Positions 22,965-59,693 are shown, counted from the stretch's first letter. The stretch is 64,000 bases of DNA from Candidatus Bathyarchaeia archaeon (GCA_038883775.1 JAVZLM010000005.1:64001-128000), one strand, 5' to 3'. The notes: generated by a model from the sequence alone, not told the origin. Translations and numbers: made by a program.

Positions 22965-23851
22965 CTTATCCGCGCATCCTTCTTGAGTTTGCAGACAAAG
23001 AAACCTTGAGTTTTACCCGGCCAAATTCTCCTACAATTCTCTATTTGATCGTCAAGCTTTCTTCCAAAAATCTCGGTCGAGGGAGGCTCACCATAACAAT
23101 CGATTTTTTCCACGTGAAGCCCGAGGTTTTTTATTGCCCAATCAATGATTAATTCGTCTTCTTCGGGTTCAAGGGAGCACGTTGAATAGACTATTTCTCC
23201 ATCATCCTTCAAAACTTTCGCTGCTTCAGCCAATATTTCTTTTTGGCATTTCGCATTCTTCTCAATATCTTTGATCGTTCTGCGTTTGAACCAGTATTCG
23301 TCTGTGGAAAAGTTGCCAGAACATGGAACATCCAATAATATGCGATCAAACTTCATTTTCAATTTGGAGGCATGCCGCGCATCTGAATTATAAACTATCG
23401 TGTTTTTCACGTGGCATCGCTCAAGTTGATTTGAAAGGGCGGTTAATCTCCGCAATTTAACGTCTAAAGCTATAATTACGCCGGTGTTCTCCATCAAATC
23501 TGCCAATTGAACAGTTTTTCCTCCAGGAGCCGCACAAGCATCCAAAACAATTTTGTCTTTCAAATCTGTGAAAAGCGTTGGTGGAATCTGGGATGCTGCT
23601 TCTTGAATTGAATAATAGCCTAAAAGGTATTCTGTTGTTGCGCCAACGGAAAATTCTGAATGAGATACCCAATAGCCCTTTTCTAAGAAGGGGATTTTCT
23701 CAAGTCCAATTCCCAAAGATTGTAATCTTTTAACGATTTCTTCTTCCTCGGCGTTCGTGGAGTTTATCCTAATGGCTGGTTTAGGCTTTACATCCTCATA
23801 TTTCCAGCCGAGCATTTCATAGCGGTTTACAAAAAACTCTTTTCCAGACAT
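22961..23851 (-). CDS. RsmB/NOP2-family RNA m5C methyltransferase
   Basis: IQEAAS, DACAAPGGKT, LLDVPCSG, YSTCSL. Confidence 0.93.
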   Translation of the reverse strand: MSGKEFFVNRYEMLGWKYEDVKPKPAIRINSTNAEEEEIVKRLQSLGIGLEKIPFLEKGYWVSHSEFSVGATTEYLLGYYSIQEAASQIPPTLFTDLKDKIVLDACAAPGGKTVQLADLMENTGVIIALDVKLRRLTALSNQLERCHVKNTIVYNSDARHASKLKMKFDRILLDVPCSGNFSTDEYWFKRRTIKDIEKNAKCQKEILAEAAKVLKDDGEIVYSTCSLEPEEDELIIDWAIKNLGLHVEKIDCYGEPPSTEIFGRKLDDQIENCRRIWPGKTQGFFVCKLKKDARIR

Positions 23852-47261: not shown

Positions 47262-47423
47262 ATGCCAATAATGGATCCGCTTAAAAAAACTCTCGCCCAG
47301 AAACACAGATTATATATGAAAATATGCAGAGAATGCGGCGCCAGAAATGCTGCAACCGCAGTTAAATGCAGAAAATGCCGAAGCAAAAACCTACGTTGGA
47401 AGAAAAGAGAACTCGTAAAGTAA
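47262..47423 (+). CDS. rpl40e: 50S ribosomal protein L40e (absent from the ORF track)
   Basis: MPIMDPLKKTLAQKHRLYMKICRECGARNAATAVKCRKCRSKNLRWKKRELVK. Confidence 0.95.
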   Translation: MPIMDPLKKTLAQKHRLYMKICRECGARNAATAVKCRKCRSKNLRWKKRELVK

Positions 47424-47503
47424 TTTTCCTCTAACTTCTCTACTCAGTTGATTGGTTATTGAATGCGAAAATTACATATATGATAAATTCCATATTTATA
47501 AAA

Positions 47504-47522
47504 TAGGCTGTTCGAAGATTAA
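47504..47522 (+). repeat. Left terminal inverted repeat
   Basis: TAGGCTGTTCGAAGATTAA, with imperfect extension AAACTTTTATATA. Confidence 0.92.
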
Positions 47523-47627
47523 AAACTTTTATATATAACTGTCATATTACTATTATTTGGTTGCCATATGGCTATTATATAATCCCAGAAGGATGGAAAA
47601 CCACCCCTCTGGAGGAGTTGACAACCC

Positions 47628-48632
47628 GTGGTAGCGAGCCTCAACTCCAATATGCCCAGTCATATTCAGAGTGATAAATGTCTTTCGTTAGAGTTTTTGT
47701 TTGACAATGTGGATTTTTTGTTTGTTTGGAAGATTGTTATGAAAAAGTATCATTTGCGTGGGAGACCTCATGACCCTATTGCTATGTTTAAGGCTTTGCT
47801 TTTGAAGGAGATGAGGCAGTTTTCTTCTCGTCGGAAATTGGTGGAGTTTCTTAGGCGTGATTCTTTTTGGTTGAGAAAGTGTGGTTTTGAGCAGCCGCCG
47901 AGCCATAATAGTTTTTCTGATTTTGTTGATAGGGTTGGGGCAGATGCTACTGAGCAGCTTTTCTATCATTTGGTCAATGAAATAAGGAAACTTAAGAAGA
48001 TTGGGGAAATCGTCTCAATAGACTCCACACCTTTGAAAGCATATGCACATTTTTGGAAGAATAGGGAATGCTCTGACCCTGATGCCAAGTGGGGATATAG
48101 TCCTACGGCGGAGTGGGTTTTCGGTTATAAAGTTCACTTAGCCGTTGATGCAGATTCAGAACTTCCTTTGGCATTTATTGTTACACCAGCCAATATTTAT
48201 GATAGTGTAGAATATCCTGAACTTTTAAACAAACTGATTCAGATGGGAATACAGCCAAAAATAGTTCTTGCGGACGCAGGATACGACTCCAAGAAAAACT
48301 ATCTGCTAACTCTAAAATGTGGAGCTACTCCAATCATTGCACTTAACAAGCGAAAAATGAAGAGAAGGAAAACAAGGGATTTCGAACGTATCTTGCCGAT
48401 AAAACGAAAAAGTGAACGTTGGAAGTCTCTTTACAGAAAGAGAAGCAGTGCTGAAAGAGTCATTTCACGGCTGAAAGAAGAGTTAGCTTTGAGAGACGTA
48501 AAAGTGAGAGGATTGAACAATGTGCGAATTCACGTAGCATTCTCTTTAATAGCAATGTTAACCGTAGCCCTCGTTGCCTTAAAAACCGGAAATGGACACA
48601 AAGCGACAAGTGTAAACTCATTTAGATTCTAA
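47628..48632 (+). CDS. DDE transposase (IS4/IS5/IS1182-like superfamily)
   Basis: SIDST, GYKVHL, LADAGYDS, Y-x2-R-x3-E-x6-K (YRKRSSAERVISRLK); RBS GGAGGAG. Confidence 0.93.
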   Translation: MVASLNSNMPSHIQSDKCLSLEFLFDNVDFLFVWKIVMKKYHLRGRPHDPIAMFKALLLKEMRQFSSRRKLVEFLRRDSFWLRKCGFEQPPSHNSFSDFVDRVGADATEQLFYHLVNEIRKLKKIGEIVSIDSTPLKAYAHFWKNRECSDPDAKWGYSPTAEWVFGYKVHLAVDADSELPLAFIVTPANIYDSVEYPELLNKLIQMGIQPKIVLADAGYDSKKNYLLTLKCGATPIIALNKRKMKRRKTRDFERILPIKRKSERWKSLYRKRSSAERVISRLKEELALRDVKVRGLNNVRIHVAFSLIAMLTVALVALKTGNGHKATSVNSFRF

Positions 48633-48940
48633 TCGGTATTCATAGTTACTCATGCACGAGGAGCTGCCAGTATTTTACTCATTGTTTGGAGTGTGCAAGA
48701 AAACCAGAGAAAAACATTATTGAAGGTGTGGGCACACATTAGATATTCGATTGGTTAATGCAAAGGCGAAAAGCAATTCGCTTACTTTAAATTCTACTAA
48801 ATATTACTTGTAACAGGTGTTTTATGCTCTATTACACTATCCTATTTTGAGAAAGCTTAAAATCCTTTTTTGAGATAACTTTATAAGCAACTCTGTATCT
48901 TATTTTAGGATGTAAATAAGCATAACAACGTAAGTAGGAG

Positions 48941-49618
48941 GTGAAAATCTTGCCGAAGTTAGGAAATATGGTGTATCCATATATTAAACTTAGCCGTGCT
49001 ATTGAAATCGCCAGACGTATTTGTGAGAGTCCATACAAAGGAGAAATCAGCGTTAGTGGTCTTGCTCAAGAACTTAAAATGTCAGAGAAAGGCGGAGGTT
49101 TCCTTTATCTCGTAGCTTCCTTGCGAGACTATGGATTAGTTGAGGGGACGGGCACTCTTAGAGCGACGGAAATAGCTAAGAAAATCGTAGCAGGAACTCC
49201 TGAAGAAATGAGTAAGAGTCGAGTAGAAAGCTTCCTAAAAGTTGAGCTTTTTAAGAGTCTTAAAGAGAAAATAGGCACAGAGGTTCCAGAAATAGAGCAG
49301 TTTTCTGTCATTTTAAGAGATTTAACGAAAGCAGACCCGCTTAAAGTAAAAAATGTCGCAGAAACAATCCGTAATCTTTATTTAGACGGAGTTCCTTACA
49401 TTAAAGCACTTGAAGAGGCTAAAAAAGAGGAGATTAAAATGACCAAAGAAACTGCAACAGCCCAAGTTGACATATCTACGGCAAAACCGCCTATGCTTGA
49501 AGAACTGAAGTTTGGAGAAAATGTTAGAATATGGCTTCCCAAAGAGAACATCAAAGAGGAATGGAAAAAAGCCAAAAAGATGGTTGATATCTATCTCGGT
49601 ATTGAAGAGGGGAGATAA
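48941..49618 (+). CDS. Hypothetical protein with N-terminal wHTH-like domain
   Basis: YPYIKLSRAI..LAQEL..GGGF..VASLRDYGLV. Confidence 0.7.
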   Translation: MKILPKLGNMVYPYIKLSRAIEIARRICESPYKGEISVSGLAQELKMSEKGGGFLYLVASLRDYGLVEGTGTLRATEIAKKIVAGTPEEMSKSRVESFLKVELFKSLKEKIGTEVPEIEQFSVILRDLTKADPLKVKNVAETIRNLYLDGVPYIKALEEAKKEEIKMTKETATAQVDISTAKPPMLEELKFGENVRIWLPKENIKEEWKKAKKMVDIYLGIEEGR

Positions 49619-49733
49619 TTCCTCTTTTCCCTTAATTTTTTGTAGAGGCATACCTCTTGAAAATTTAAAGCCCATTTTTAGAGTGAACGAATTTTCAATC
49701 TTAGTTTGGATGCAAAAGCAGGAAAAAGAGAGA

Positions 49734-50009
49734 TTAATAAATTTTGAGTTTTCCTTTAATCTGATTAACAGTGTCTCTAATCTCTTTTAGGTCCTTTTGG
49801 ATTTCATCTACATCTTTTGAAACCAGTGATACTTTCATGTATAAAGCACCTGCTCCAAAGGCGACTGAAATCCAAGGCACATTAGCCAAAATATCCTCAA
49901 ATGGAGGGTCTAATCTCAACAACATTTTGATAATCCATATAACGAGTATAGCAAAAGCTATAAGGAAAATCAAATTACTAAGCGATTCTTGCTTTTTTCT
50001 TCTCGCCAT
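49734..50009 (-). CDS. Small 2-TM protein with C-terminal coiled coil
   Basis: Two hydrophobic helices then heptads VDEIQKDLKEIRDTVNQIKGKL; AGGTGA RBS. Confidence 0.7.
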   Translation of the reverse strand: MARRKKQESLSNLIFLIAFAILVIWIIKMLLRLDPPFEDILANVPWISVAFGAGALYMKVSLVSKDVDEIQKDLKEIRDTVNQIKGKLKIY

Positions 50010-50098
50010 TTTATCACCTAAATCTATTCACTCTATTTTAACAATTAACATTTTCTGAAAATCATAAAATATCTTAACATTGCCTATGAAAAACCAGT

Positions 50099-50359
50099 TC
50101 AAGTATCTCCCAGAGCAATTTCTTCTACAATATCTTGTGGGGATTTTAATTGGTAGGTTCTTTTTCTGGCATCGTTGGGGTCTAAAAATGTTTTAAGCCA
50201 TCCGTGCTTTCTTAAATCAGACAAAATCACACTGACAGTCTTATCGTCTTTCTCTTTTAGCAGACGCCTTGCCTCGTCAAAATCGAAATTTTGATTCTTT
50301 TTCTCTTTCCAAAGCTTGGCATAGCGAAGAAATAACCATTTAGGAAGGGGGTTAGTCAT
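50099..50359 (-). CDS. Small winged-helix regulator
   Basis: VSVILSDLRKHGWL...DPNDARKRTYQL (MarR-like wing). Confidence 0.8.
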   Translation of the reverse strand: MTNPLPKWLFLRYAKLWKEKKNQNFDFDEARRLLKEKDDKTVSVILSDLRKHGWLKTFLDPNDARKRTYQLKSPQDIVEEIALGDT

Positions 50360-50453
50360 GTTTATCCCAGTCCTTTAGTTATCTGTTAAGCGCTATATTT
50401 ATATACTACGTAAGCTATTAGCTTGTATGACAAGCAAACAACAAACCATATGA

Positions 50454-51617
50454 GTGAAATTAATGAGCGTTGAAAGATGTCCTGTTTGCGGAGGCTTTCC
50501 AAGTCGATATTTAATTAATGATGCGAATCTGAAGTTTCTGAAGGATTGCGCAACTAAGGGTCAACTGGATGAAGCCATCTCTGTTGCTCGAATCCTTTGG
50601 AGCAAGTTTCCAGAACTGCGGTTAAACGCTGATTCAAAGATAATTATAGAGGGTGTATCAGCTAATATGCTCAGAGCACTACAAGCCCAAATAAACGAAA
50701 CATTGGAACCAGCAAAAATGTTTGCTGAGAAGCTTCCTGAACTTGTTTACAAGCTACCAGTGGAAATGGATAAGACCATGGATGAGAAGATTGAAGAAAT
50801 GAGAACTTTATTAGCTAAGGAGTTTAAGGAGACACTTAACAACATGGGATTTCCCGAACCCGAGCAACTCAAGTTACTGAGCCAACTTATGCCTGCTGTT
50901 TTACCTCTTCTACAAGAATTATTGATGCTTCAAAAAGTTCCAAGCGAAAAAGGGAAAACTGGAGAATTAGAACTACTAAAGGAATTGAAAGACGTTTTCC
51001 CAGAAGATGACTACAAACATGTTGGCGGTCCAGGAGCAACGGATATCATCGCCACCCCCGTATATGGTGGTTTTCAACTCAGTCAAAGAGTGCTCATCGA
51101 ATCAAAGAAAAACAACAGCGGTTGGAGCAGAGACTTTGTAGATGAAGTCAGAAGGCATATGCAAGCCTATTCAAATCGTTTCGCTATACTCGCTGTAGAA
51201 GTTATGCCAAAAGGAGCAAGAGGTTTTCTCATCGAACATTTCAATGAAGGTGCCATTTTGGTCACAAGTAGAAAAGATGTTTGCATAGCCTATGGAGCTC
51301 TTAGGGCTGTTTTCATCGCTACGTATCCTTTCGAAGTTAGTGCTGGAGACCTTCGGAAACTTTTTGAAGAAAAAAGAATCGAAGAAGCTATAAAAGACGC
51401 TTTGAATTATCAAGAATATCTAAAAAAGATTAAAACAAAATCAGCAAGCATAATTTTAAATGCAAAAAATATTGTTGAGCTTTCTGACGACCTGAACACT
51501 CATTTAAGATTTTGCCTCACCGAACTTCAGAAAAGAATAAGAAATGCAGTTCAAGAAATCGTAGAAGCTCGACCAACTACTAAAGGTGGTTCACCAAACA
51601 TATTAAAAAGGAGTTAA
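50454..51617 (+). CDS. Coiled-coil PD-(D/E)XK nuclease-like protein (DUF2130/RmuC-like)
   Basis: CPVCG, helical stalk, KGKTGELEL...ATDII...LIESK, C-terminal coiled coil. Confidence 0.7.
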   Translation: MKLMSVERCPVCGGFPSRYLINDANLKFLKDCATKGQLDEAISVARILWSKFPELRLNADSKIIIEGVSANMLRALQAQINETLEPAKMFAEKLPELVYKLPVEMDKTMDEKIEEMRTLLAKEFKETLNNMGFPEPEQLKLLSQLMPAVLPLLQELLMLQKVPSEKGKTGELELLKELKDVFPEDDYKHVGGPGATDIIATPVYGGFQLSQRVLIESKKNNSGWSRDFVDEVRRHMQAYSNRFAILAVEVMPKGARGFLIEHFNEGAILVTSRKDVCIAYGALRAVFIATYPFEVSAGDLRKLFEEKRIEEAIKDALNYQEYLKKIKTKSASIILNAKNIVELSDDLNTHLRFCLTELQKRIRNAVQEIVEARPTTKGGSPNILKRS

Positions 51618-51658
51618 CGTTACCTTAGTAAGTGTAAGAAGGAGGATTTAGAAAAACA

Positions 51659-52903
51659 TTGCTTGAGGCTCCAAGGTCTATGGCTGAGCCGATTCTTGAC
51701 TGGATTCTGAACGGCATACCTGTGCGTGTTGACGTGAAACTTTTTGATGATGTTAGTCTTATTTATGAAGCCCAACTCGCCAAAATGGAGCTATCAAAAT
51801 GGTGGGACGACCTTGAAAGTTTTAGAAAGAGAACAGCATATTTCGAAGAAGTTAACGGGAAAAAGTCCTACCACTATTATATTTCAGACATCAAAGGGAA
51901 GGGGCAGATAGGGAGAACATGTCAATATCTTACTCATTGGTATTATCCTTATAAAGCAAAGTTTCATCCTCAAATGATTAAAGCAATAATTAACTGGATG
52001 GGTCTAAAGAGACCTCAAAAACTGCTTGACCCATTCGTGGGAAGTGGAACTGCTTTGGTTGAAGCCAAAACAATGGGTGTAGACAGCATAGGAATAGACA
52101 TCAATCCCGTTTGCACTTTGATGTCCAGAGTTAAATGCGACCTTCTGGACTTATCTCCAGAGGATTTAAATTCTGTTCCAAGGGAAAAAGCTTTCCATTT
52201 CTTTGACAGAAAAAGAAAAAAACTCGGGCACACAAGCCTTGAAAAATTTGTAGAACATAATACAGAGCAAATTATTCAGCTTTCATCAGATGAAAGAGTG
52301 GCTCGATTCTACGAACTATCCTATCTTTATGCATTATCTGATTTCACCTATGTAAAGAGAGACTTATGGAAAGGGTTTAACGAAAATATTGATGCCGTTA
52401 TTGACACCGTGGAAAGGTTCAGTAAATTGAAAGAGGAGCTGAATCTTGAGTTAGGGAATGTTGATGTAAGGGAAGGAGACGCAAGAAAGCTACCTTTTAG
52501 AGATGAGGAAATAGATGGAATTGTTACTTCCCCACCTTACAGTATTGCTGTCGATTACATTAAACAAGATTTACACGCTTTGGACTATCTAAACATTGAT
52601 ATCGCTCAACTTGTCAATAACATGATAGGGCTCAGAGGAAAGGGCGAAGAAAGAATCGTCAACTACTTCGTGGACATGCTTGCTGCATTTAGAGAGATGT
52701 ATCGAGTTTTAAAGAAAGGAGCATTTTGCGTGATTCTAATAGGAGACGTGACATATAATGGGAAACGGTTACCTATACATAAAAAGTATATTGAATTTGC
52801 TGAAACCGTTGGTTTCTCTCATATTGGAATAATAAAGCGACCTATACTTGGCGGTTACGCCAGACTCAGGTATGAATACATTTTAATGTTCCAAAAATTA
52901 TAG
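51659..52903 (+). CDS. Amino-DNA methyltransferase (probably m4C; motif I precedes motif IV)
   Basis: THWYYPYKAKFHPQM, LDPFVGSGT, IDINP, VTSPPY. Confidence 0.92.
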   Translation: MLEAPRSMAEPILDWILNGIPVRVDVKLFDDVSLIYEAQLAKMELSKWWDDLESFRKRTAYFEEVNGKKSYHYYISDIKGKGQIGRTCQYLTHWYYPYKAKFHPQMIKAIINWMGLKRPQKLLDPFVGSGTALVEAKTMGVDSIGIDINPVCTLMSRVKCDLLDLSPEDLNSVPREKAFHFFDRKRKKLGHTSLEKFVEHNTEQIIQLSSDERVARFYELSYLYALSDFTYVKRDLWKGFNENIDAVIDTVERFSKLKEELNLELGNVDVREGDARKLPFRDEEIDGIVTSPPYSIAVDYIKQDLHALDYLNIDIAQLVNNMIGLRGKGEERIVNYFVDMLAAFREMYRVLKKGAFCVILIGDVTYNGKRLPIHKKYIEFAETVGFSHIGIIKRPILGGYARLRYEYILMFQKL

Positions 52904-53974
52904 TCTGCTTAAGCCTTGAACATGAGGATAATAGGAAATAAGTCTTTTTTCTTGTTCTTTCTCGTCCTTCAAAAGATTTCTAACAAATGGTTTTTTTCTT
53001 ACGCAATTGTAGTGATAGTGAAGTTCCTTTTCCTCAGAGGGTTTGAGCACTCCTTTATACGTTATGTAATTGCACTTTCTGAAATTTTTGCATTCTTTTT
53101 TGCAGCTTATTTTTATATCTTCAATCTTCTGAGAGTAGTCAGAAAATCTGTTTATGATTTCGTCGCAATAAAGAATCCATTTTTCGCATATTGGGCAACG
53201 CAACGGAACAGTGTTTGGGACACGAGCTACCACGACCGGAATAGAGGTTCTTGATGAAAAATCGAATATGTGGTCGGGAGTTTTTTGAATGGCTTGCTTC
53301 ACTTCCACTCCAAAAATTCGACCATTTTTGACTATTAGAAAGTCTGGAGCTATAGAATGTGAATCATGAGATAACAATCTTTGATTGAGAAGCATTGGAA
53401 TAACGTATCCAAAATTGTGCCTTATCAGGTAAGCATAAACAATAAGCTCAATGGCTGCGCCAACAGATTTGGGAAGAAGGGAGTCCACAGCATAGTAAAG
53501 CTTCTTTGTTTTCTTATCTTTGTATGACAAGTCCTCCTTGAACTTTTTAGCTTCTTCGTAGATTTTTTCAGCTTCTTCATCTTCGAAAAAGTATGGAATA
53601 TTCTGTTTTTTCATGAAATCCATAAGGCGTTTTCTTATTGAGAAACAAGCATAGGTAGTAACTTGTTCTTGAATTAGAAGCTGGTTAACGACGTATAATA
53701 TCATTTTAAGATACGATTTTCGGTTAGTCTTGTGAAAGCCCCAGATAGAACCTCGAGATACTAAAATATACATAAGGTAGTCGTATAGAATCATTTGTCT
53801 GCCATCTTTACCAACATAAAGCTCTTTAGAGAATTTCTCATAACCTTCAAGTGAATCAATCTTTTTACGCATCATCATGTAATCTTGGTCATGTGTGGCA
53901 AAAAATTGGTCAACAATCAGAAGATGTTTTGCTGTTGATAATGCCCTTTCCAAAACTTTATCCAAAACATTCAC
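52898..53974 (-). CDS. Putative restriction endonuclease (PD-(D/E)XK) with Cys-rich C terminus
   Basis: AAIE, APDFL...GVEVK, CPIC, CKKEC; convergent with and overlapping the MTase stop. Confidence 0.65.
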   Translation of the reverse strand: MNVLDKVLERALSTAKHLLIVDQFFATHDQDYMMMRKKIDSLEGYEKFSKELYVGKDGRQMILYDYLMYILVSRGSIWGFHKTNRKSYLKMILYVVNQLLIQEQVTTYACFSIRKRLMDFMKKQNIPYFFEDEEAEKIYEEAKKFKEDLSYKDKKTKKLYYAVDSLLPKSVGAAIELIVYAYLIRHNFGYVIPMLLNQRLLSHDSHSIAPDFLIVKNGRIFGVEVKQAIQKTPDHIFDFSSRTSIPVVVARVPNTVPLRCPICEKWILYCDEIINRFSDYSQKIEDIKISCKKECKNFRKCNYITYKGVLKPSEEKELHYHYNCVRKKPFVRNLLKDEKEQEKRLISYYPHVQGLSRL

Positions 53975-54004
53975 CTACAAAGAATTTGTTTGCGGGATAG
54001 TTGC

Positions 54005-54769
54005 CTAAAATAATTTCGTTTGTTGTCCTTTGTCTCTTCTCCATTCATCACTGGCTTTTTTGATTATTCGCAAAATTGCTTCGTAGGTTCCAACTCCTCC
54101 AAGTTTATCCCACATTTCCTTTCCGATTAGCACCTCTTTTTCCATATCCATAATTCGTTTCGTAAAACTCCACCTATACAAATGCCGTTCAACGTAAGGA
54201 TTATATGTCAAACCAAGAAATGCTTGAGCTCTTTTTCCTTCATGAGCTACCAAAAACAATAGCATCTTCCTTTTCGATTCAGCACATTGGTCAAGATTAG
54301 GTAAAGGAGCCTTAATTTCCATGAACAAAGGTCCATCTTCATGGTCACCTACATACAAATCAGCTATTATCCTAACAGAAGTTTTTTCAGAGCTGGAAAC
54401 TGACATTATTTCCCTCATTTCCTCTATGTGATTTGGTCTTCGCATTCCGCTACGAAGGCTATTCACTATAGTGTCAACCATTGTGACTTTTGCACCGTCA
54501 AGGTCAGTTAAAATTTCATATTCCCTGTGAACATCTGAATATCGTCCCTTCGCAACAATCTCCGCCACTGCTGGCAGAAAACGAGTCCCCACAGTTGTCT
54601 CAACTGAACTTACCAAATCTCCATGAAGTATAGCTTCATCGGTCAAAAACGCACTATGAAAAGGTTTAGCCTCCTTAACTTCTTCCAGAGAACGCCGAGC
54701 CTTAATAGAAAGGTCCTCAAGAACTCTCTTAACTAAATCTGAAATTTCCTTTTCCGTTTTCTCGTCCAA
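54005..54769 (-). CDS. TdeIII/MjaII-family type II restriction endonuclease
   Basis: KPFH, ADLY, EIKAPLPNLDQ, YNPY, VLIGKEMWD.LGG..TY. Confidence 0.85.
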   Translation of the reverse strand: MDEKTEKEISDLVKRVLEDLSIKARRSLEEVKEAKPFHSAFLTDEAILHGDLVSSVETTVGTRFLPAVAEIVAKGRYSDVHREYEILTDLDGAKVTMVDTIVNSLRSGMRRPNHIEEMREIMSVSSSEKTSVRIIADLYVGDHEDGPLFMEIKAPLPNLDQCAESKRKMLLFLVAHEGKRAQAFLGLTYNPYVERHLYRWSFTKRIMDMEKEVLIGKEMWDKLGGVGTYEAILRIIKKASDEWRRDKGQQTKLF

Positions 54770-54894
54770 GTATTTATCACTAATCTAACAAATCGTCTGA
54801 CCAGATTTATAAGAACTATCCCTCGGAATAATAACAACGCTAACTTAGAAAGTTTTATTTGCTGAGTGAAAAAGATTTAGACCTTGTGATTTAT

Positions 54895-55329
54895 ATGACG
54901 TTAAGAATAACTACAAGAAATAGAAACAAGCTTTCACAAGAGTTGCATGATTGGGTTATTGAAATGACTGTGGAGCGTCTTTATGGTAAATTTAGAGAGG
55001 CAGGCAGAAAAATATACACAAATCCAAATCAACAGAAGAACTTTGCTGTAAATGGTTTCTATCCCGACATTGTGGTCTAAAATCCGGAGACGGAAAAAGT
55101 TACATTTATCGATGAAATAGAGACGGAAGTGGGCGAAATCGAGAAAAATCAATGGGAAGATTTCGCCAAACTTGGAATAGGTTTTTCTGTAACAGTTCCA
55201 TTGAATGACGTAGAAAATGCCAAGAAAATTATTAGAGACAACAAAATTAGAGTAACCTCTCTTTGGTCTTATAAAACTGATTACCCGGCAACTAAAAATA
55301 TAACTTTCAAAGAAGAAACTCTTTCATAA
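54895..55329 (+). pseudogene. PD-(D/E)XK-like nuclease gene interrupted by in-frame TAA (55078-55080)
   Basis: ORFs 54859-55080 and 55129-55329 share a frame; reading through gives FYPDIVV*NPETEKVTFIDEIET. Confidence 0.78.
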
Positions 55330-55356
55330 ATGGTCACAAAAACAAACAAAAAATGG

Positions 55357-55557
55357 TTATTTCGCTTCTTTCTGAGACCATTTTGCTTTAACTGCAAGCA
55401 ACTCTTGTATATACTCTTCTCTTTTCTTTGCGTATTCTTTGATGGCGTTTGCGAAAGCTTTCCCGATGGTATCTTCTAACCCCAACTTAGTTAATTGTCG
55501 AGCTAAATTGTAAGCCTCTTCTGGAACCGTTACGGATTTATATCCATTTAGAGGCAT
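55357..55557 (-). CDS. Small ribbon-helix-helix-like regulator/antitoxin
   Basis: YKSVTVPEEAYNLA; AGGTGG RBS. Confidence 0.65.
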   Translation of the reverse strand: MPLNGYKSVTVPEEAYNLARQLTKLGLEDTIGKAFANAIKEYAKKREEYIQELLAVKAKWSQKEAK

Positions 55558-55644
55558 CTAAACCACCTTTGCTATAAATATGTTGAAAAAGTAAATATAT
55601 GTTATTACCACAAAACCTTAAATCAGTATGGTAAAAATGGTAAG

Positions 55645-55905
55645 GTGCATATCATGGAAACTGAAGGTTCATCAGACTTTATCATAACAAATGGAAAATA
55701 CGCAGAAGGTAATAGAATCCTTGTAATCAATCCAAAGACGAACAAAGGGTTGTATGCAATGCTCAGAAACCTCGAGTTTCTAAGCGAGATTCAACGACCC
55801 GGCGATAAAATAAATGTGCACTGCAGAAGTGGCGTCACCTCAAAGGGCGAATTTGTATTCTGTGACGTTTTCCTAACCAGAGAATTCGCTAACTCTGAGT
55901 TCTGA
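55645..55905 (+). CDS. Hypothetical protein
   Basis: 86-aa ORF divergent from the RHH-like gene; no motif recognised. Confidence 0.5.
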   Translation: MHIMETEGSSDFIITNGKYAEGNRILVINPKTNKGLYAMLRNLEFLSEIQRPGDKINVHCRSGVTSKGEFVFCDVFLTREFANSEF

Positions 55906-55968
55906 TTGAGCGATAGTTGACCGAGTTTTCTATTTGCTCGTCCCTGAATGGCTTTCTAAGCACAAAAT

Positions 55969-56559
55969 TTAGATTGAAATGATGTGAATATCCTCTGGTA
56001 ACTTTGTTATATCGATGAGTGGAGAAACGGTCATTATTGCTTGGATTTTAAGGCGTTTTAGTTCTCTAAAAAGGGAAGGGACCATATTTTTGATAAGCCT
56101 CTCAAAAGGGTCGTCAGCTATCAAGCATTGGTAGCCTCTTGTAAGGTTTTGTAAGTTTCCCGTTATGCTTATGGAATCTTGTTTTGGAAACAGTCTTAGC
56201 GTTATTGTTCCATTGTTAAATACTCTGTTCGTGAAATATCGGTGTCTTATACCGAAAGCAAACAGAATAGCTCTTACTATGGTAGATTTGCCACTTCCGC
56301 ATGTGCCATGAATCAAATTTATCGAGTTTCTGCAAAAATATGCTTCAAAATTATCAAATGGTCCGACTTTAGTCAATTTCAGTGATTCAATTTGGAAAGG
56401 CAAGAAGTATGTTTCTCCGTAAAGGGAGTCTTCACAGCCTACTTCAGCCAACAATTTTCGCAAATGTTCTTTAGCTGTTCTTGGTCTTTTTATCTCTAAA
56501 GCTTGTCTTAGTTCCTTCTTTTGAGGTCTGGAAATACTTGTGTTTTCTGTTTTCTTCAT
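55969..56559 (-). CDS. Minimal SMC/Rad50/OLD-type P-loop ATPase
   Basis: IESLKL..VGPF, Walker A GTCGSGKST, Walker B/D-loop LIADDPFERL. Confidence 0.7.
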   Translation of the reverse strand: MKKTENTSISRPQKKELRQALEIKRPRTAKEHLRKLLAEVGCEDSLYGETYFLPFQIESLKLTKVGPFDNFEAYFCRNSINLIHGTCGSGKSTIVRAILFAFGIRHRYFTNRVFNNGTITLRLFPKQDSISITGNLQNLTRGYQCLIADDPFERLIKNMVPSLFRELKRLKIQAIMTVSPLIDITKLPEDIHIISI

Positions 56560-56793
56560 GGAATAAAATAAATTTGACCATGTAAATAAGTTCTTCTTAA
56601 GGTTTGATACTATTCACTTCTATGGTTTTTTCTATATTGCCTTGGACATTAGAGTTTAGAAGGAAAAGAGAAAATCTTAGAAAAGAATGTGGCGTTGTCA
56701 TACTAAATGCTCAGATGAATTATTTCAGTTTGGCGAGAGAGTATGGAGATAAATTTTTTAACTATTGATGAGCAAGATTAGTGTGGTAGAAGT

Positions 56794-57498
56794 ATGGAGT
56801 TAATTCTTAAAGAAGCAGCAAAGGCTTTTGGAAAGGAAGTAGCAAAAGAAGTAACGCCAATAATAGTGAAGAAATTTTTAGGGAAAACACAAAAACTATC
56901 TGTAAAGTTCGGGTTAGTGTTGACTTTTTATGAATATCCATTAATGGATGATGCAATAGCCCTTATAGAAAATTGTATACACAAGTTCAAATGTGGCGTA
57001 GGTATGTTGAAGATTGATGACGTAACATTTGATTATTACATTAGCTTTGAACTTGAAGAGTTTGTGAGCCCCGATATTGACATTCTAATTCAAGAAGAGC
57101 CTGAATACGCAATCTCTGACCAATTTATTTCCTTGCTTGAGATTCTGCTCTCTCCTCATCTAAAGAAAGAAGTCCATGACAAGAAAGAAGTTGAAAATGT
57201 CTTCTTTTCCGGGTTTAAGCTGTTAGATGGAATTACAAAGTGTTTAGAAAATGAAGAAATCGCTGCGACAGTATTAAAAATTCGTTCAGCAGTAAAATTG
57301 CTTGGTATTGAATCTGAGTTAAATTTTGCACAGAATATTTTTACGGAGTTGTCTAAAAAAATTGCGAAATTAAAATTGCCTTACAGCCCATACGTCTCTT
57401 TTTCGCCAATTTCAAAAATAGAAGGACAAATTGGGCAAGTTATCGTATCACTCAAAGATGCGGGGGTGTTAATGGCTATAATAGATGCGATAACATGA
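56794..57498 (+). CDS. Hypothetical protein
   Basis: 234-aa ORF, 1 nt from the next gene. Confidence 0.7.
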   Translation: MELILKEAAKAFGKEVAKEVTPIIVKKFLGKTQKLSVKFGLVLTFYEYPLMDDAIALIENCIHKFKCGVGMLKIDDVTFDYYISFELEEFVSPDIDILIQEEPEYAISDQFISLLEILLSPHLKKEVHDKKEVENVFFSGFKLLDGITKCLENEEIAATVLKIRSAVKLLGIESELNFAQNIFTELSKKIAKLKLPYSPYVSFSPISKIEGQIGQVIVSLKDAGVLMAIIDAIT

Positions 57499-57499
57499 G

Positions 57500-58267
57500 G
57501 TGAAGATTTTGGTATTTTGGACGTGTAGAGTTTTTAAAATAAATCCCAAATTTGATAGTATTGTAAAGGATGTTATTTTGAAAACGGGAAGTTACCAATA
57601 TGGTAAAGTTGAAAACAAAAATCTTTTCTTATACATTGACAGAATTCAGGAGACTTTTGGTGGATGGGCTAAATTAATTGAGACTTACATCGATAGTCCT
57701 CGCAGGGTATTTAATAGAGAAGAAGGTTATGTTGCCATAAAAGAAACAGTTCCATTTAACATTTGTCTATTTGAAAAATCAAGCATCCCAAATTTCTTGG
57801 CTATTTTTGGTTCAAGTTACAATATTCCAGTTCTGACCTATGCTCTTAAGGTGATAATTTCTGAAAGGGGACGGTCTAAAGGTCAGATTCCAGACTCATT
57901 AATTGTGTTCTCTCCTTTATTTAAACTGAATTTCAGGTTGAAAGGAAAAGAAAATGAATTAAGTAAATATCTCTCTAACATCAGAGAAATTAGCGTTAGA
58001 GAAATTAAAGACATGTATGTCCATGCAGCGAGCCTCAAAGGACTATTATTGGAATTAAGTGAAGAATATCAAAAATATGTCCGTGACAGTGAGATATCTG
58101 GAAGAATAAATTATTTCGGCGTAAACGTTGAAGGCAGAGTTATGATGTTGTCTTCTGAAGGAAAAATATGGACGAGACAGGGAAAAAATAATGTCGAACC
58201 GGAAATTGTTAAAATGATTCTCGAGGTCTTAGATAAATGTGATGCAATTCATGTTGTAGAGCAATGA
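57500..58267 (+). CDS. Hypothetical protein
   Basis: 255-aa alpha/beta ORF tightly coupled to the previous gene. Confidence 0.72.
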   Translation: MKILVFWTCRVFKINPKFDSIVKDVILKTGSYQYGKVENKNLFLYIDRIQETFGGWAKLIETYIDSPRRVFNREEGYVAIKETVPFNICLFEKSSIPNFLAIFGSSYNIPVLTYALKVIISERGRSKGQIPDSLIVFSPLFKLNFRLKGKENELSKYLSNIREISVREIKDMYVHAASLKGLLLELSEEYQKYVRDSEISGRINYFGVNVEGRVMMLSSEGKIWTRQGKNNVEPEIVKMILEVLDKCDAIHVVEQ

Positions 58268-58304
58268 AAATTGTGCTCATGTTTTAACGGTTGTTAGTGA
58301 GAGT

Positions 58305-58514
58305 TTGATAAGAATGTTTGAGCATGCTGAAAAGGTTGTAAAAAAATTGACGAAAGAAAACATGGAACATTTGAGACGCCAGATAGATGAGTGCTTGAAG
58401 ATGGCAATCAAGTTTGATGAAACGGGTAAAGCAAAATATTTTGTTAAGATGAAGAATTCTTGCCAAACCTTTCTCCAGATGCTAAATGAGTTGGAGAAGA
58501 AAGCTGATTCTTAG
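58305..58514 (+). CDS. Small helical hypothetical protein
   Basis: 69-aa ORF convergent with the AbrB-like gene. Confidence 0.5.
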   Translation: MIRMFEHAEKVVKKLTKENMEHLRRQIDECLKMAIKFDETGKAKYFVKMKNSCQTFLQMLNELEKKADS

Positions 58515-58753
58515 CCTTCCACGATTTTTATTTTCTTTCCTCTAATCACAAAGCCATCCGGCGACACTTTGATTTTCGGCTCTTCTACCGACGTTATTAT
58601 CATTAGCTTGCGATATGGGTCAATAGTAATTTTAACTGTATCTCCAGCCTTAAACGGATAATTAGAATCCTGAACCATAACAGACGGAATAACCAAATAC
58701 TGAGTATGTGCATTCTTACTTTGCACAATCTTAACTTCAGCCTCTAAAACCAT
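58511..58753 (-). CDS. AbrB/MazE/SpoVT-like DNA-binding protein
   Basis: KIVQSKNAHTQYLVIP.......FKAGDTVKITID. Confidence 0.72.
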   Translation of the reverse strand: MVLEAEVKIVQSKNAHTQYLVIPSVMVQDSNYPFKAGDTVKITIDPYRKLMIITSVEEPKIKVSPDGFVIRGKKIKIVEG

Positions 58754-58812
58754 ACAACAACCACCAACAGACTCCCAAATAACAACTGTATGAAAACTAT
58801 ATAAAAACTTTA

Positions 58813-58831
58813 TTAATCTTCGAACAGCCTA
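58813..58831 (-). repeat. Right terminal inverted repeat
   Basis: TTAATCTTCGAACAGCCTA, exact reverse complement of 47504-47522. Confidence 0.92.
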
Positions 58832-58867
58832 ATAAAATTATAAAATGCAGGTTTTGAGGTGCAAGCA

Positions 58868-58921
58868 GTGGCTTGTAAGACTAAGAAGAAAACCAAGAAA
58901 AAAGCGAAGAAAACGAAATAA
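58868..58921 (+). CDS. Candidate 17-aa Lys-rich micropeptide MACKTKKKTKKKAKKTK
   Basis: GAGGTG RBS 6 nt before GTG; T-rich tract downstream. Confidence 0.45.
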   Translation: MACKTKKKTKKKAKKTK

Positions 58922-58991
58922 AAAATCACATTAATCTCCTCATTTCCCCATTTTTATTTGAAAGAAAAACGTGCGCTCAACTCTCTTATAT

Positions 58992-59606
58992 TTAAAGAAT
59001 TTTTGATAAAGTTTCAAGGTTGAAAATGGTGTTTGCACAGCCATTCTTTATCAGAGGAACGGCTTGACCAGCAATTCCCAAATAGTTTAATGCCTCACCG
59101 CTCAATCTTATTTCTTCGCCACAAGCAACTCCAACAACCCCATCATAATGATTATTTTTCAAAATTTTCTGAACACAAGAACCACCAGGCAATATGTAAA
59201 CGTCATAACCTTTTTTCTCGGCGAGAACCACTGCTCTGTTAATTAGGCAGTCTGGGGAACAATGCGCACAACTGTAAGAGGGAATATGGGGGTCAAAAGT
59301 TGCCTTACAACGATTATCCATATATTTCCTAGAACAATGTGGCAGAAAAAGAGCCCGTTTTCTCGTCTGCTCAAACCGTTTCCTTTCTAAAAGGTTTCTG
59401 GCTTGCATGTCTATAAGGTCTTGAAGAAGAAAAACAGCATCAGACAAGTTGAGACCCGTAATCTCCTGAATCCTAAACTTTTTAATGATATCCTGCATTG
59501 TTTTGCTAACCTTTTTATGAACACCCTTTTGAAATCCAACTCTAGCAACTTCGGTAAAGAAGAAACGAGGAACCCTTGAAAGGTCAAAGGTAAACTTGTA
59601 TGGCAT
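58992..59606 (-). CDS. DUF116 domain protein
   Basis: LFLPHC, CAHCSPDC, ILPGGS, VGVAC, GC. Confidence 0.85.
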   Translation of the reverse strand: MPYKFTFDLSRVPRFFFTEVARVGFQKGVHKKVSKTMQDIIKKFRIQEITGLNLSDAVFLLQDLIDMQARNLLERKRFEQTRKRALFLPHCSRKYMDNRCKATFDPHIPSYSCAHCSPDCLINRAVVLAEKKGYDVYILPGGSCVQKILKNNHYDGVVGVACGEEIRLSGEALNYLGIAGQAVPLIKNGCANTIFNLETLSKIL

Positions 59607-59693
59607 AAAGTATTCTATAAATAACAAACCTTTAAAATTAACTGTTGCTTATACTCATACTCTAAGACATTGAAACAAAAAGGAGGAAAAACG

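Follow-up and report, generated by a model that had tools for sequence, protein, structure and literature searches.

How did a block of about 15 genes come to lie between two housekeeping genes of an uncultured archaeon, and does it move as one piece? The block is found in a Candidatus Bathyarchaeia archaeon (GCA_038883775.1), within a stretch of 64,000 nucleotides (JAVZLM010000005.1:64001-128000) that was analysed as a whole and is referred to below as the window. A first-pass annotation, made from the sequence alone, had marked positions 47498-58837 as an 11.3-kb cargo transposon with a single transposase and a defence island inside. The analysis supports the reading, to which we assign a probability of around 85%, that the element is a non-composite ('unit') cargo transposon of the 'transporter IS' (tIS) type, with insertion sequence (IS)-type ends around passenger genes. 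Comparison with other copies further indicates that it is one member of a previously undescribed family whose cargo differs from copy to copy, and that the transposon is probably active. Genomes, loci and runs are given G, L and X numbers below.

The borders of the element, and the two genes that adjoin them on the inside, are as follows.

47498..47503, no strand: left target-site duplication ATAAAA (sequence; joint 47497->58832 in a contig of run X2, see below)
47504..47560, plus strand: left terminal inverted repeat (TIR), perfect at 47504-47522 and imperfect to 47560 (sequence, end comparison)
47628..48632, plus strand: DDE transposase, 334 amino acids (aa), GTG start, with DUF772 and DDE_Tnp_1 domains
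58511..58753, minus strand: conserved end-proximal protein of 80 aa, present in every complete relative, with a weak AbrB/VapB/MazE/SpoVT-like predicted fold
58775..58831, minus strand: right TIR, perfect at 58813-58831 (sequence, end comparison)
58832..58837, no strand: right target-site duplication ATAAAA (sequence; the same X2 joint)

The ends proved to be as exact as had been claimed. The 19-mer TAGGCTGTTCGAAGATTAA is found without mismatch at 47504-47522 on the plus strand and at 58813-58831 on the minus strand, and the 6-bp direct repeat ATAAAA abuts both ends, so delimiting an element of 11328 bp with one intact transposase at its left end. These two are the sole matches in the 64-kb window when up to three mismatches are allowed (0 of 100 shuffles gave two), and the only two across the genome (1.69 Mb, 28 contigs) at up to two mismatches. 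Beyond the 19 bp the inverted repeat extends imperfectly, to 57 nt at 79% (47504-47560 and 58775-58831). The housekeeping genes said to resume on either side are rpl40e (47262-47423) on the left and a DUF116 gene (58992-59627, minus strand) on the right; the GC content of the element (0.34-0.39) is slightly lower than that of the flanks (0.39-0.44), which is a weak signal. The left TIR contains a TTTTATATATA stretch 24-34 nt from its tip, facing the transposase, and the right TIR a TTTTTATATAG stretch 25-35 nt from its tip, facing the 80-aa gene. Both TTTATATA-like stretches look like putative inward-facing archaeal TATA boxes.

The remaining structural claims held as well. No end-like site (up to six mismatches) follows the transposase between 48194 and 53547, the nearest being at 53548. 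A single match to the transposase and two copies of the end are present in the genome, so that the two-IS arrangement of a composite transposon is not found. A Pfam scan of 20 window proteins recovered no integrase or recombinase family. The right TIR does not belong to a degraded second IS, as the conserved 80-aa gene reaches to 60 bp from it.

Whether the flanks were once joined was addressed by searching 40 relatives, four of them of the same genus (G001-G004), with the region and its flanks. In G001 and G003 the flanks abut exactly at the element borders, the junctions reading ...ccatacTTATAAAtgcag... and ...ccatatTTAAAAAcgcaat..., respectively. In G004 the flanks are adjacent with a different intergenic spacer and in G002 the contig stops within the left flank. 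The blocks on the rpl40e and the DUF116 side are furthermore neighbours on one contig, with no island between them, in at least nine more distant genomes. The predicted empty site with a single ATAAAA was recovered from run X2, where a contig joins 47497 to 58832 and thereby skips 11334 nt, which equals 11328 + 6 (the shorter side measures 94 nt). Both junctions are also spanned in run X1, by contigs that show no difference from the window (47382-55378 and 58097-59052), and are therefore not peculiar to the window assembly; X1 may be the sample from which the window derives. The runs that carry window sequence are labelled hot-spring metagenomes. Read depth was higher at the flanks than in the element in X2 and X3, as a sum over the contigs of several organisms that does not constitute evidence of polymorphism.

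An alternative duplication of 8 bp, TTATAAAA, with six extra bases at the right end, was prompted by the sequences ...CTTATAAATGCAG of G001 and ...TTTAAAAACGC of G003. It was set aside because two other copies (L051 and L057) show clean 6-bp repeats, because short relatives are flanked by the 6-bp GCGCGC and because the empty site in the X2 contig consists of exactly one ATAAAA. The insertion had also been called recent. This holds in a relative sense, as it took place later than the split from the species whose flanks are around 88% identical. Copies in different samples differ by a synonymous divergence (dS) of 0.26-0.77.

The transposase reading frame (47628-48632, plus strand) is intact, as had been claimed, with matches to DUF772 (E 1.6e-13) and DDE_Tnp_1 (E 1.5e-31). 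Residues D132, D216 and E276 of the window transposase recur in one aligned relative at 56% identity, and we take them to be the candidate catalytic DDE triad. The label 'IS4/IS5-like' stands at the level of the superfamily and falls at that of the family, where no curated IS model fits. The best NCBIfam model was IS1182 with 172.7 bits (E 1.4e-50; cut-off 270), followed by IS5_4 with 101.7 bits (E 4.6e-29; cut-off 140), and the remaining IS models scored lower. Because both cut-offs were missed and the best annotated plasmid relatives (ISNCY) are 31% identical, the element is assigned to the DDE_Tnp_1 (IS4/IS5/IS1182) superfamily but to no family within it, in what on the model scores is an unclassified IS5/IS1182-like group. 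Among six intact copies the ratio of nonsynonymous to synonymous divergence (dN/dS) of the transposase is 0.03-0.11, at the dS range given above. For the 80-aa gene the ratio is 0.06-0.08, and purifying selection on both core genes is thus strong. The transposases of copies from different samples diverge by 7-20%.

The more distant relatives, at 29-38% identity, are ordinary short ISs with a single gene. At 26 loci with transposases of 29-49% identity, an inverted-repeat pair encloses the gene in 23, with lengths of 1046-1374 bp and the second end 20-120 bp past the transposase. In several of these short ISs the ends are of the TAGGCTGTT type and the 6-bp GCGCGC adjoins them. The GCGCGC palindrome is found on both sides of many of them (L017-L038), and the long elements show no such preference; the palindrome would reflect a strict preference for a 6-bp target or else belong to the ends. 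When 33 transposases were placed in a maximum-likelihood tree, those of the ten long elements fell on one side of a branch with support 100/98, opposite 23 relatives that come from 1.05-1.37-kb ISs wherever the ends could be paired. The tree is rooted at the midpoint only, and the long branch of L039 adjoins the long-element group.

To what extent does the element recur? Transposase homologs (E <= 1e-10) are present in 98 of the 401 genomes sampled from the order, and only three of the 401 hold transposases that are more than 50% identical, namely G349 (69%, broken), G053 (56%) and G278 (63/51%, split). A query with the single transposase against genome contigs gave no loci and one with a two-sequence alignment gave G349 and G053 only. 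The far ends of the three closest loci lay beyond the default flanks and were found in extended sequence. In G278, TAGGCTGTTCACGGGTTAG-type ends lie 5558 bp apart within a perfect 8-bp flank repeat, and in G349 the window's own 19-mer (one end with one mismatch) delimits 4582 bp. A metagenome scan added 14 transposase loci. The exact 19-mer precedes the transposase in eight of these, which together with the window makes nine unrelated left flanks, one of them (L059) being the G349 site. Two of the metagenome copies are complete, L051 with 10244 bp and flank repeat TTAAGA, and L057 with 5101 bp and flank repeat ATCTAC. The five copies with both ends thus measure 11328, 10244, 5558, 5101 and 4582 bp, with flank repeats of 6, 6, 8, 6 and 5 bp, respectively; a 6-bp duplication is found in three of the five.

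Closely similar copies at different sites also speak for mobility. L055 shares 99.7% identity with L052 over 1957 bp and has a different left flank, and in runs X2 and X3 element contigs of around 96-99% identity continue into flanks unlike those of the window. No right end was found within the roughly 10 kb of sequence at L049, L052, L054 and L056, and none of the ends at L060, where the transposase is decayed and the 80-aa gene also occurs. Three side observations concern these loci. In L055 (138-168) the transposase is truncated by the loss of around 230 bp that separate its body from the left end (window 47533-47763). In L056 (8464-8471, minus strand) a TAGGCTGT core stands in opposite orientation 1.3 kb upstream of the element's left end, and may be the end of a neighbouring element. 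Finally, the contigs of L049, L050, L052, L054 and L057 end 123-127 bp outside an element end; that co-existing filled and empty alleles split the assembly graph there is speculation.

Every complete copy carries, just inside the end opposite the transposase, a gene of around 80 aa that is read inward. A TAGGCTGT-type end follows within around 60-120 bp of this gene in all six cases with sequence beyond it (the window, L051, L044, L043, L057 and L066 of G172). In an order-wide search, strong matches to the 80-aa protein (E < 1e-30) occurred solely in G000, G278, G349 and G172. In a collection of 5.8 billion proteins its family comprises 276 clusters (E <= 0.001), of which the 120 listed all lack both a name and a Pfam domain; the names of the sources suggest Bathyarchaeia, Conexivisphaerales and Nitrososphaerales. 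The protein itself matched no Pfam family at E <= 0.01, save for one chance-level match, and no relevant PDB sequence. An AlphaFold2 model based on a 59-sequence alignment reached a mean predicted local distance difference test (pLDDT) of 83.2, and an earlier model from nine sequences (pLDDT 56.4) was set aside. With the better model, Foldseek returned nothing at E <= 0.001, its top rows (E >= 0.45) being mostly VapB, MazE and Sso7c4. In the VIA structure search the 8 best of 23 rows had Z 2.7-4.3 over 47-58 residues and were of the AbrB, VapB, SpoVT or C56 type, apart from one titled only 'histone-like protein'. In the Atlas search the AbrB/MazE lead was sub-threshold (rank 19, score 0.83). 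For the N-terminal ~50 residues an AbrB/MazE-like DNA-binding fold is thus a consistent lead from the models, not proof. In a sister group of elements, L043 (5034-5219), L057 (2708-2878) and L056 (15398-15583), a second, internal paralog of the 80-aa protein occurs directly upstream of a ParB_N gene whose start it overlaps.

The cargo of the window copy consists of 14-16 open reading frames (ORFs) of at least 60 aa between the transposase and the right end, in line with the 'about 15 passenger genes' of the first-pass annotation. Those with a recognisable or recurring character are listed here.

48941..49618, plus strand: passenger ORF of 225 aa, without family in the Pfam and PADLOC scans
50099..50359, minus strand: passenger ORF of 86 aa, winged-helix-like (MsvR model, 27.6 bits against a cut-off of 220)
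50454..51617, plus strand: DUF2130 protein, 387 aa (Pfam)
51659..52903, plus strand: type II DNA methyltransferase (N6_N4_Mtase), 414 aa (Pfam E 1.6e-15; PADLOC MTase_II E 6.8e-29)
52898..53974, minus strand: ORF of 358 aa without family, with a PD...E-V-K-like motif by eye only
54005..54769, minus strand: type II restriction endonuclease, TdeIII family, 254 aa (RE_TdeIII E 2.3e-49; PADLOC REase_II E 1.2e-26)
55969..56559, minus strand: small SMC-N/AAA_23-like ATPase, 196 aa (Pfam, PADLOC), with a 64-aa remnant in L051
56794..58514, plus strand: three ORFs without family (234, 255 and 69 aa), 86% identical at the DNA level to L051

Pfam and PADLOC confirmed a methyltransferase, here an N6_N4 DNA methylase, and a mini ATPase of the small SMC/AAA_23-like kind. 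Of the four nuclease-like genes that had been named, two are backed by Pfam matches (TdeIII and DUF2130) and two are not; of the three small regulators, one has a weak winged helix-turn-helix (wHTH)-like match, to the MsvR model, and the rest found no support. DUF2130 is assigned to the PD-(D/E)XK nuclease superfamily, with function unknown, in PMC3424549. The neighbouring methylase and TdeIII genes, with the 358-aa ORF in between, have the arrangement by which a type II restriction-modification (R-M) system is recognised, and on their family matches they are recognised as such. The 358-aa ORF had no match in Pfam, PADLOC, NCBIfam or PDB, and a PDB sequence search with the TdeIII-like protein was likewise without match. 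Of the 'defence island' in the window copy, PADLOC recognised the R-M pair and no other defence system. Two small neighbouring ORFs without family (73 and 66 aa; 54859-55329, plus strand), which separate the TdeIII gene from the next conserved block, may represent one gene that was split or has decayed. Outside the insertion, close to its right border at 58859-58912 (plus strand), lies a Lys-rich ORF of 17 codons (GTG start, MACKTKKK...) whose sequence and position are kept in G001 and G003 of the same genus and which is missing in G004; it may be a tiny basic peptide gene.

The cargo beside the transposase homologs does vary between copies, as the follow-up proposed in the first-pass annotation had envisaged. 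DNA homology between the window and other copies ends at 48628-48638, that is, at the transposase stop codon, and among nine copies seven different sequences are found 3' of the transposase. Beyond this point the homology resumes in blocks. L051 has 50116-51583, 55366-56154 and 56733-58843 of the window in common, L052 has 50113-54817 and L049 has 50116-53966; at 48.6-50.1 kb all three contain other sequence instead. The 86-aa wHTH-like ORF and the DUF2130 gene are thus common to the window, L049, L051 and L052, and the 358-aa ORF accompanies the methylase in L049 and L052. L054 has only the transposase in common with the window across 10 kb of sequence. The recognisable cargo can be summarised per copy.

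Window: N6_N4 methylase, TdeIII endonuclease, DUF2130 protein and small ATPase
L051: N6_N4 methylase, different from that of the window
G349: D12 methylase and SacI-family endonuclease
L056: Eco57I/type IIG enzyme
L054: HamB-like DEAD helicase and nitrilase-like protein
L049: RNase HII
L043, L057 and L056, conserved block: BrxP-like PAPS reductase, ParB_N, 198-aa ORF and proteasome-like protein

A DNA methylase is present in six of the nine elements with cargo sequence, and a recognisable endonuclease partner in four, where the count for L052 rests on clustering with the genes of the window. The 4.6-kb copy of G349 contains between its core genes only the R-M pair, a helix-turn-helix (HTH) protein and one unknown ORF. 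Stretches 64-81% identical to the small ATPase, the region of the 69-aa ORF and DUF2130 were also seen in relatives that lack the element (G004:C21:14347-14914 and 23014-23391; G012:C1:384133-387314), and the cargo modules therefore occur outside this transposon too.

Based on these comparisons, the following mode of action is proposed. The 334-aa transposase would recognise both 19-bp termini within the 57-nt imperfect repeats and move everything between them as one piece, with a 6-bp staggered cut of the target. The element would have a bipartite core, with the transposase at one end and a probably AbrB-like 80-aa DNA-binding protein at the other, each core gene being read inward from a TATA-like box in its own inverted repeat. 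The cargo bay would begin at the transposase stop codon, with modules exchanged by recombination, and the type II R-M pair would give protection to the host and stability to the element. We infer that this transposase does the moving; the 80-aa protein would most likely be a repressor or an end-binding cofactor, the TATA-like boxes would act as promoters and the cargo would serve in defence. The properties by which a tIS is recognised, namely a single IS transposase, one TIR pair, a duplication with an empty site, passengers and, by comparison, several sites, are all found.

A number of points weigh against this reading. The transposase falls below every curated IS-family cut-off of NCBIfam, and its closest annotated plasmid relatives, labelled ISNCY, are merely 31% identical. 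The far end was seen for only three of the ten 'long' rows in the tree (the window, L051 and L057), and for L050, L053 and L046 'long' means that no end was found in 1.8, 0.42 and 0.27 kb past the transposase. The flank repeats are not uniform, with 8 bp in L043 and 5 bp in L044, and the empty sites of the same genus (TTATAAA in G001) are also compatible with the 8-bp duplication TTATAAAA. The empty-site contigs were matched at a likeness of at least 90% and may represent related strains instead of the same population. Most of the cargo ORFs are without family, which leaves room for replication or other roles. The AbrB-like fold is weakly scored (Foldseek E >= 0.45, VIA Z <= 4.3) and the likeness may, as the tool itself warns, merely mirror a common arrangement. 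Lastly, the evidence for mobility is all comparative and drawn from assemblies, and no excised or circular form was seen among the contigs, which are poorly able to show such forms.

The data could also be read more boldly. The elements would then form a new archaeal family with a two-gene core, in which an AbrB-like end-binding protein is required for, or controls, transposition, a cargo bay starts at the stop codon, defence modules (several R-M types, a HamB-like helicase and the BrxP/ParB block) are shuttled between Bathyarchaeia and related Thermoproteota, and each of the 276 clusters marks an element. We consider this extension conceivable, but would sooner bet against it than on it.

Could the block instead be an integrated episome, akin to a plasmid or virus, for which the DDE transposase acts as integrase and some of the unknown genes serve replication or partition? 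The many ORFs without family would fit such an origin, as would the recurrence of the wHTH and DUF2130 pair in the window, L049, L051 and L052, and the four-gene block of L043, L057 and L056 (BrxP/PAPS-reductase-like, ParB_N, 198-aa ORF and proteasome-like) resembles element machinery rather than a random assortment of cargo; ParB-like and IbrA-like genes are described from archaeal mobile elements (PMC11529989, PMC8813620). Against it, L054 and the window have just the transposase in common across 10 kb, and the 4.6-kb copy of G349 contains hardly more than its R-M pair between the two core genes. In the 20 window proteins Pfam recognised neither a replication initiator nor a capsid, terminase or recombinase family, and no joint of a circle was found among the contigs, though contigs are weak evidence on that point. 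We regard an episome as improbable.

That the element inserted once as a unit and is now an immobile fossil, inherited only vertically while other copies are independently decaying lineages, is more unlikely still. It is present as a single copy in the genome, the transposases differ by 7-20% between samples, and the transposase genes of G349, G278 and L060 are broken. Against this stand the perfect termini, a reading frame that is intact here and in five other copies at a dN/dS of 0.03-0.11, the near-identical L055 and L052 at different sites and the other flanks in runs X2 and X3. Largely refuted, finally, is a relic of a composite transposon or of two IS insertions with the right end as the remnant of a second IS: composite transposons are the commoner route by which IS-type transposases carry genes and a lone inverted repeat can outlast the deletion of its IS, but relatives hold nothing between the flanks, so that the whole 11.3 kb came between one end pair and one duplication, the genome contains one transposase match and two end copies, the 80-aa gene lies within 60 bp of the right end as in five other elements, and a second end 20-120 bp after the transposase, found in 23 short relatives, is absent here.

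As a cargo transposon, the family would constitute a concrete and delimited vehicle for R-M and other defence genes in an uncultured, abundant archaeal class. The exact ends, the target duplication and the natural empty sites make the claim testable, and the 80-aa end protein provides a handle for finding more copies among its 276 clusters. A 334-aa transposase and 57-nt ends are the minimal parts, and these might be tried out as a transposition tool of thermophile origin.

How does the element compare with known systems? In bacteria, multi-gene cargo transposons that depend on a small IS-type transposase are familiar; in archaea they are, to our knowledge, hardly described. A 2019 survey of Thaumarchaeota describes IS-like transposons of one or two genes and gives passenger-gene transposons as undetected in archaea (PMC6563490). 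Reports since then deal with elements of other kinds, namely aloposons and Tn7-like transposons. In the literature searched, no description of such cargo transposons in Bathyarchaeia was found. The nearest category is that of the tIS, which in the sense of ISfinder and ISsaga comprises IS copies that include passenger genes (PMC3129680); in IS231-group elements, for instance, the passenger genes are reported between the left end and the transposase (PMC2266710). Like a tIS, the window element has one IS-type DDE transposase, one TIR pair and one duplication around the unit, with unrelated passengers inside. Unlike the known ones, it resides in an archaeal host (Bathyarchaeia), has a second conserved gene at its far end and swaps its cargo in modules, while the cargo follows the transposase and amounts to around 3.3-9.8 kb (more than 10 kb in loci whose sequence stops short of the far end), and its transposase scores below the cut-off of every curated IS-family model. 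With ISs of the IS5/IS1182/ISNCY type it has the DUF772 and DDE_Tnp_1 domain pair in common, but the transposase counts 334 aa against the 488 positions of the IS1182 model. The element also has a 6-bp duplication and exceeds an IS in length by a factor of 4-10.

Larger cargo transposons differ in other respects. Tn7-like transposons are described with variable, defence-rich cargo, in bacteria and, in a 2025 preprint, in archaea (PMC8649781; 10.1101/2025.07.27.667033). In contrast, Pfam recognised no TnsA/B/C-type gene in the 20 window proteins, where the only transposase is one small DDE protein. The duplication measures 6 bp, and the nine unrelated flanks give no sign of a dedicated attachment site. 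The aloposons of Heimdallarchaeia are archaeal transposons with cargo genes, for which integration at tRNA sites, tandem giant genes (3,000-6,000 aa) and a MinD/ParA-like ATPase are described (PMC8813620, PMC11529989). The window element has none of the tRNA-site, giant-gene and MinD/ParA-like features. In the Tn3 family, some unit transposons carry a small gene of the DNA-binding type (toxin-antitoxin or regulator) in the transposition module, next to a TnpA of around 1000 aa and a resolvase. Here the sole transposase is 334 aa long and Pfam gave no resolvase or recombinase match; unlike the toxin-antitoxin modules of Tn3, the 80-aa gene stands alone, convergent with its neighbour, and no toxin partner was seen. 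The kind itself, a tIS or unit transposon, is thus known, and what is new is its archaeal host, its bipartite core and the documented exchange of its cargo.

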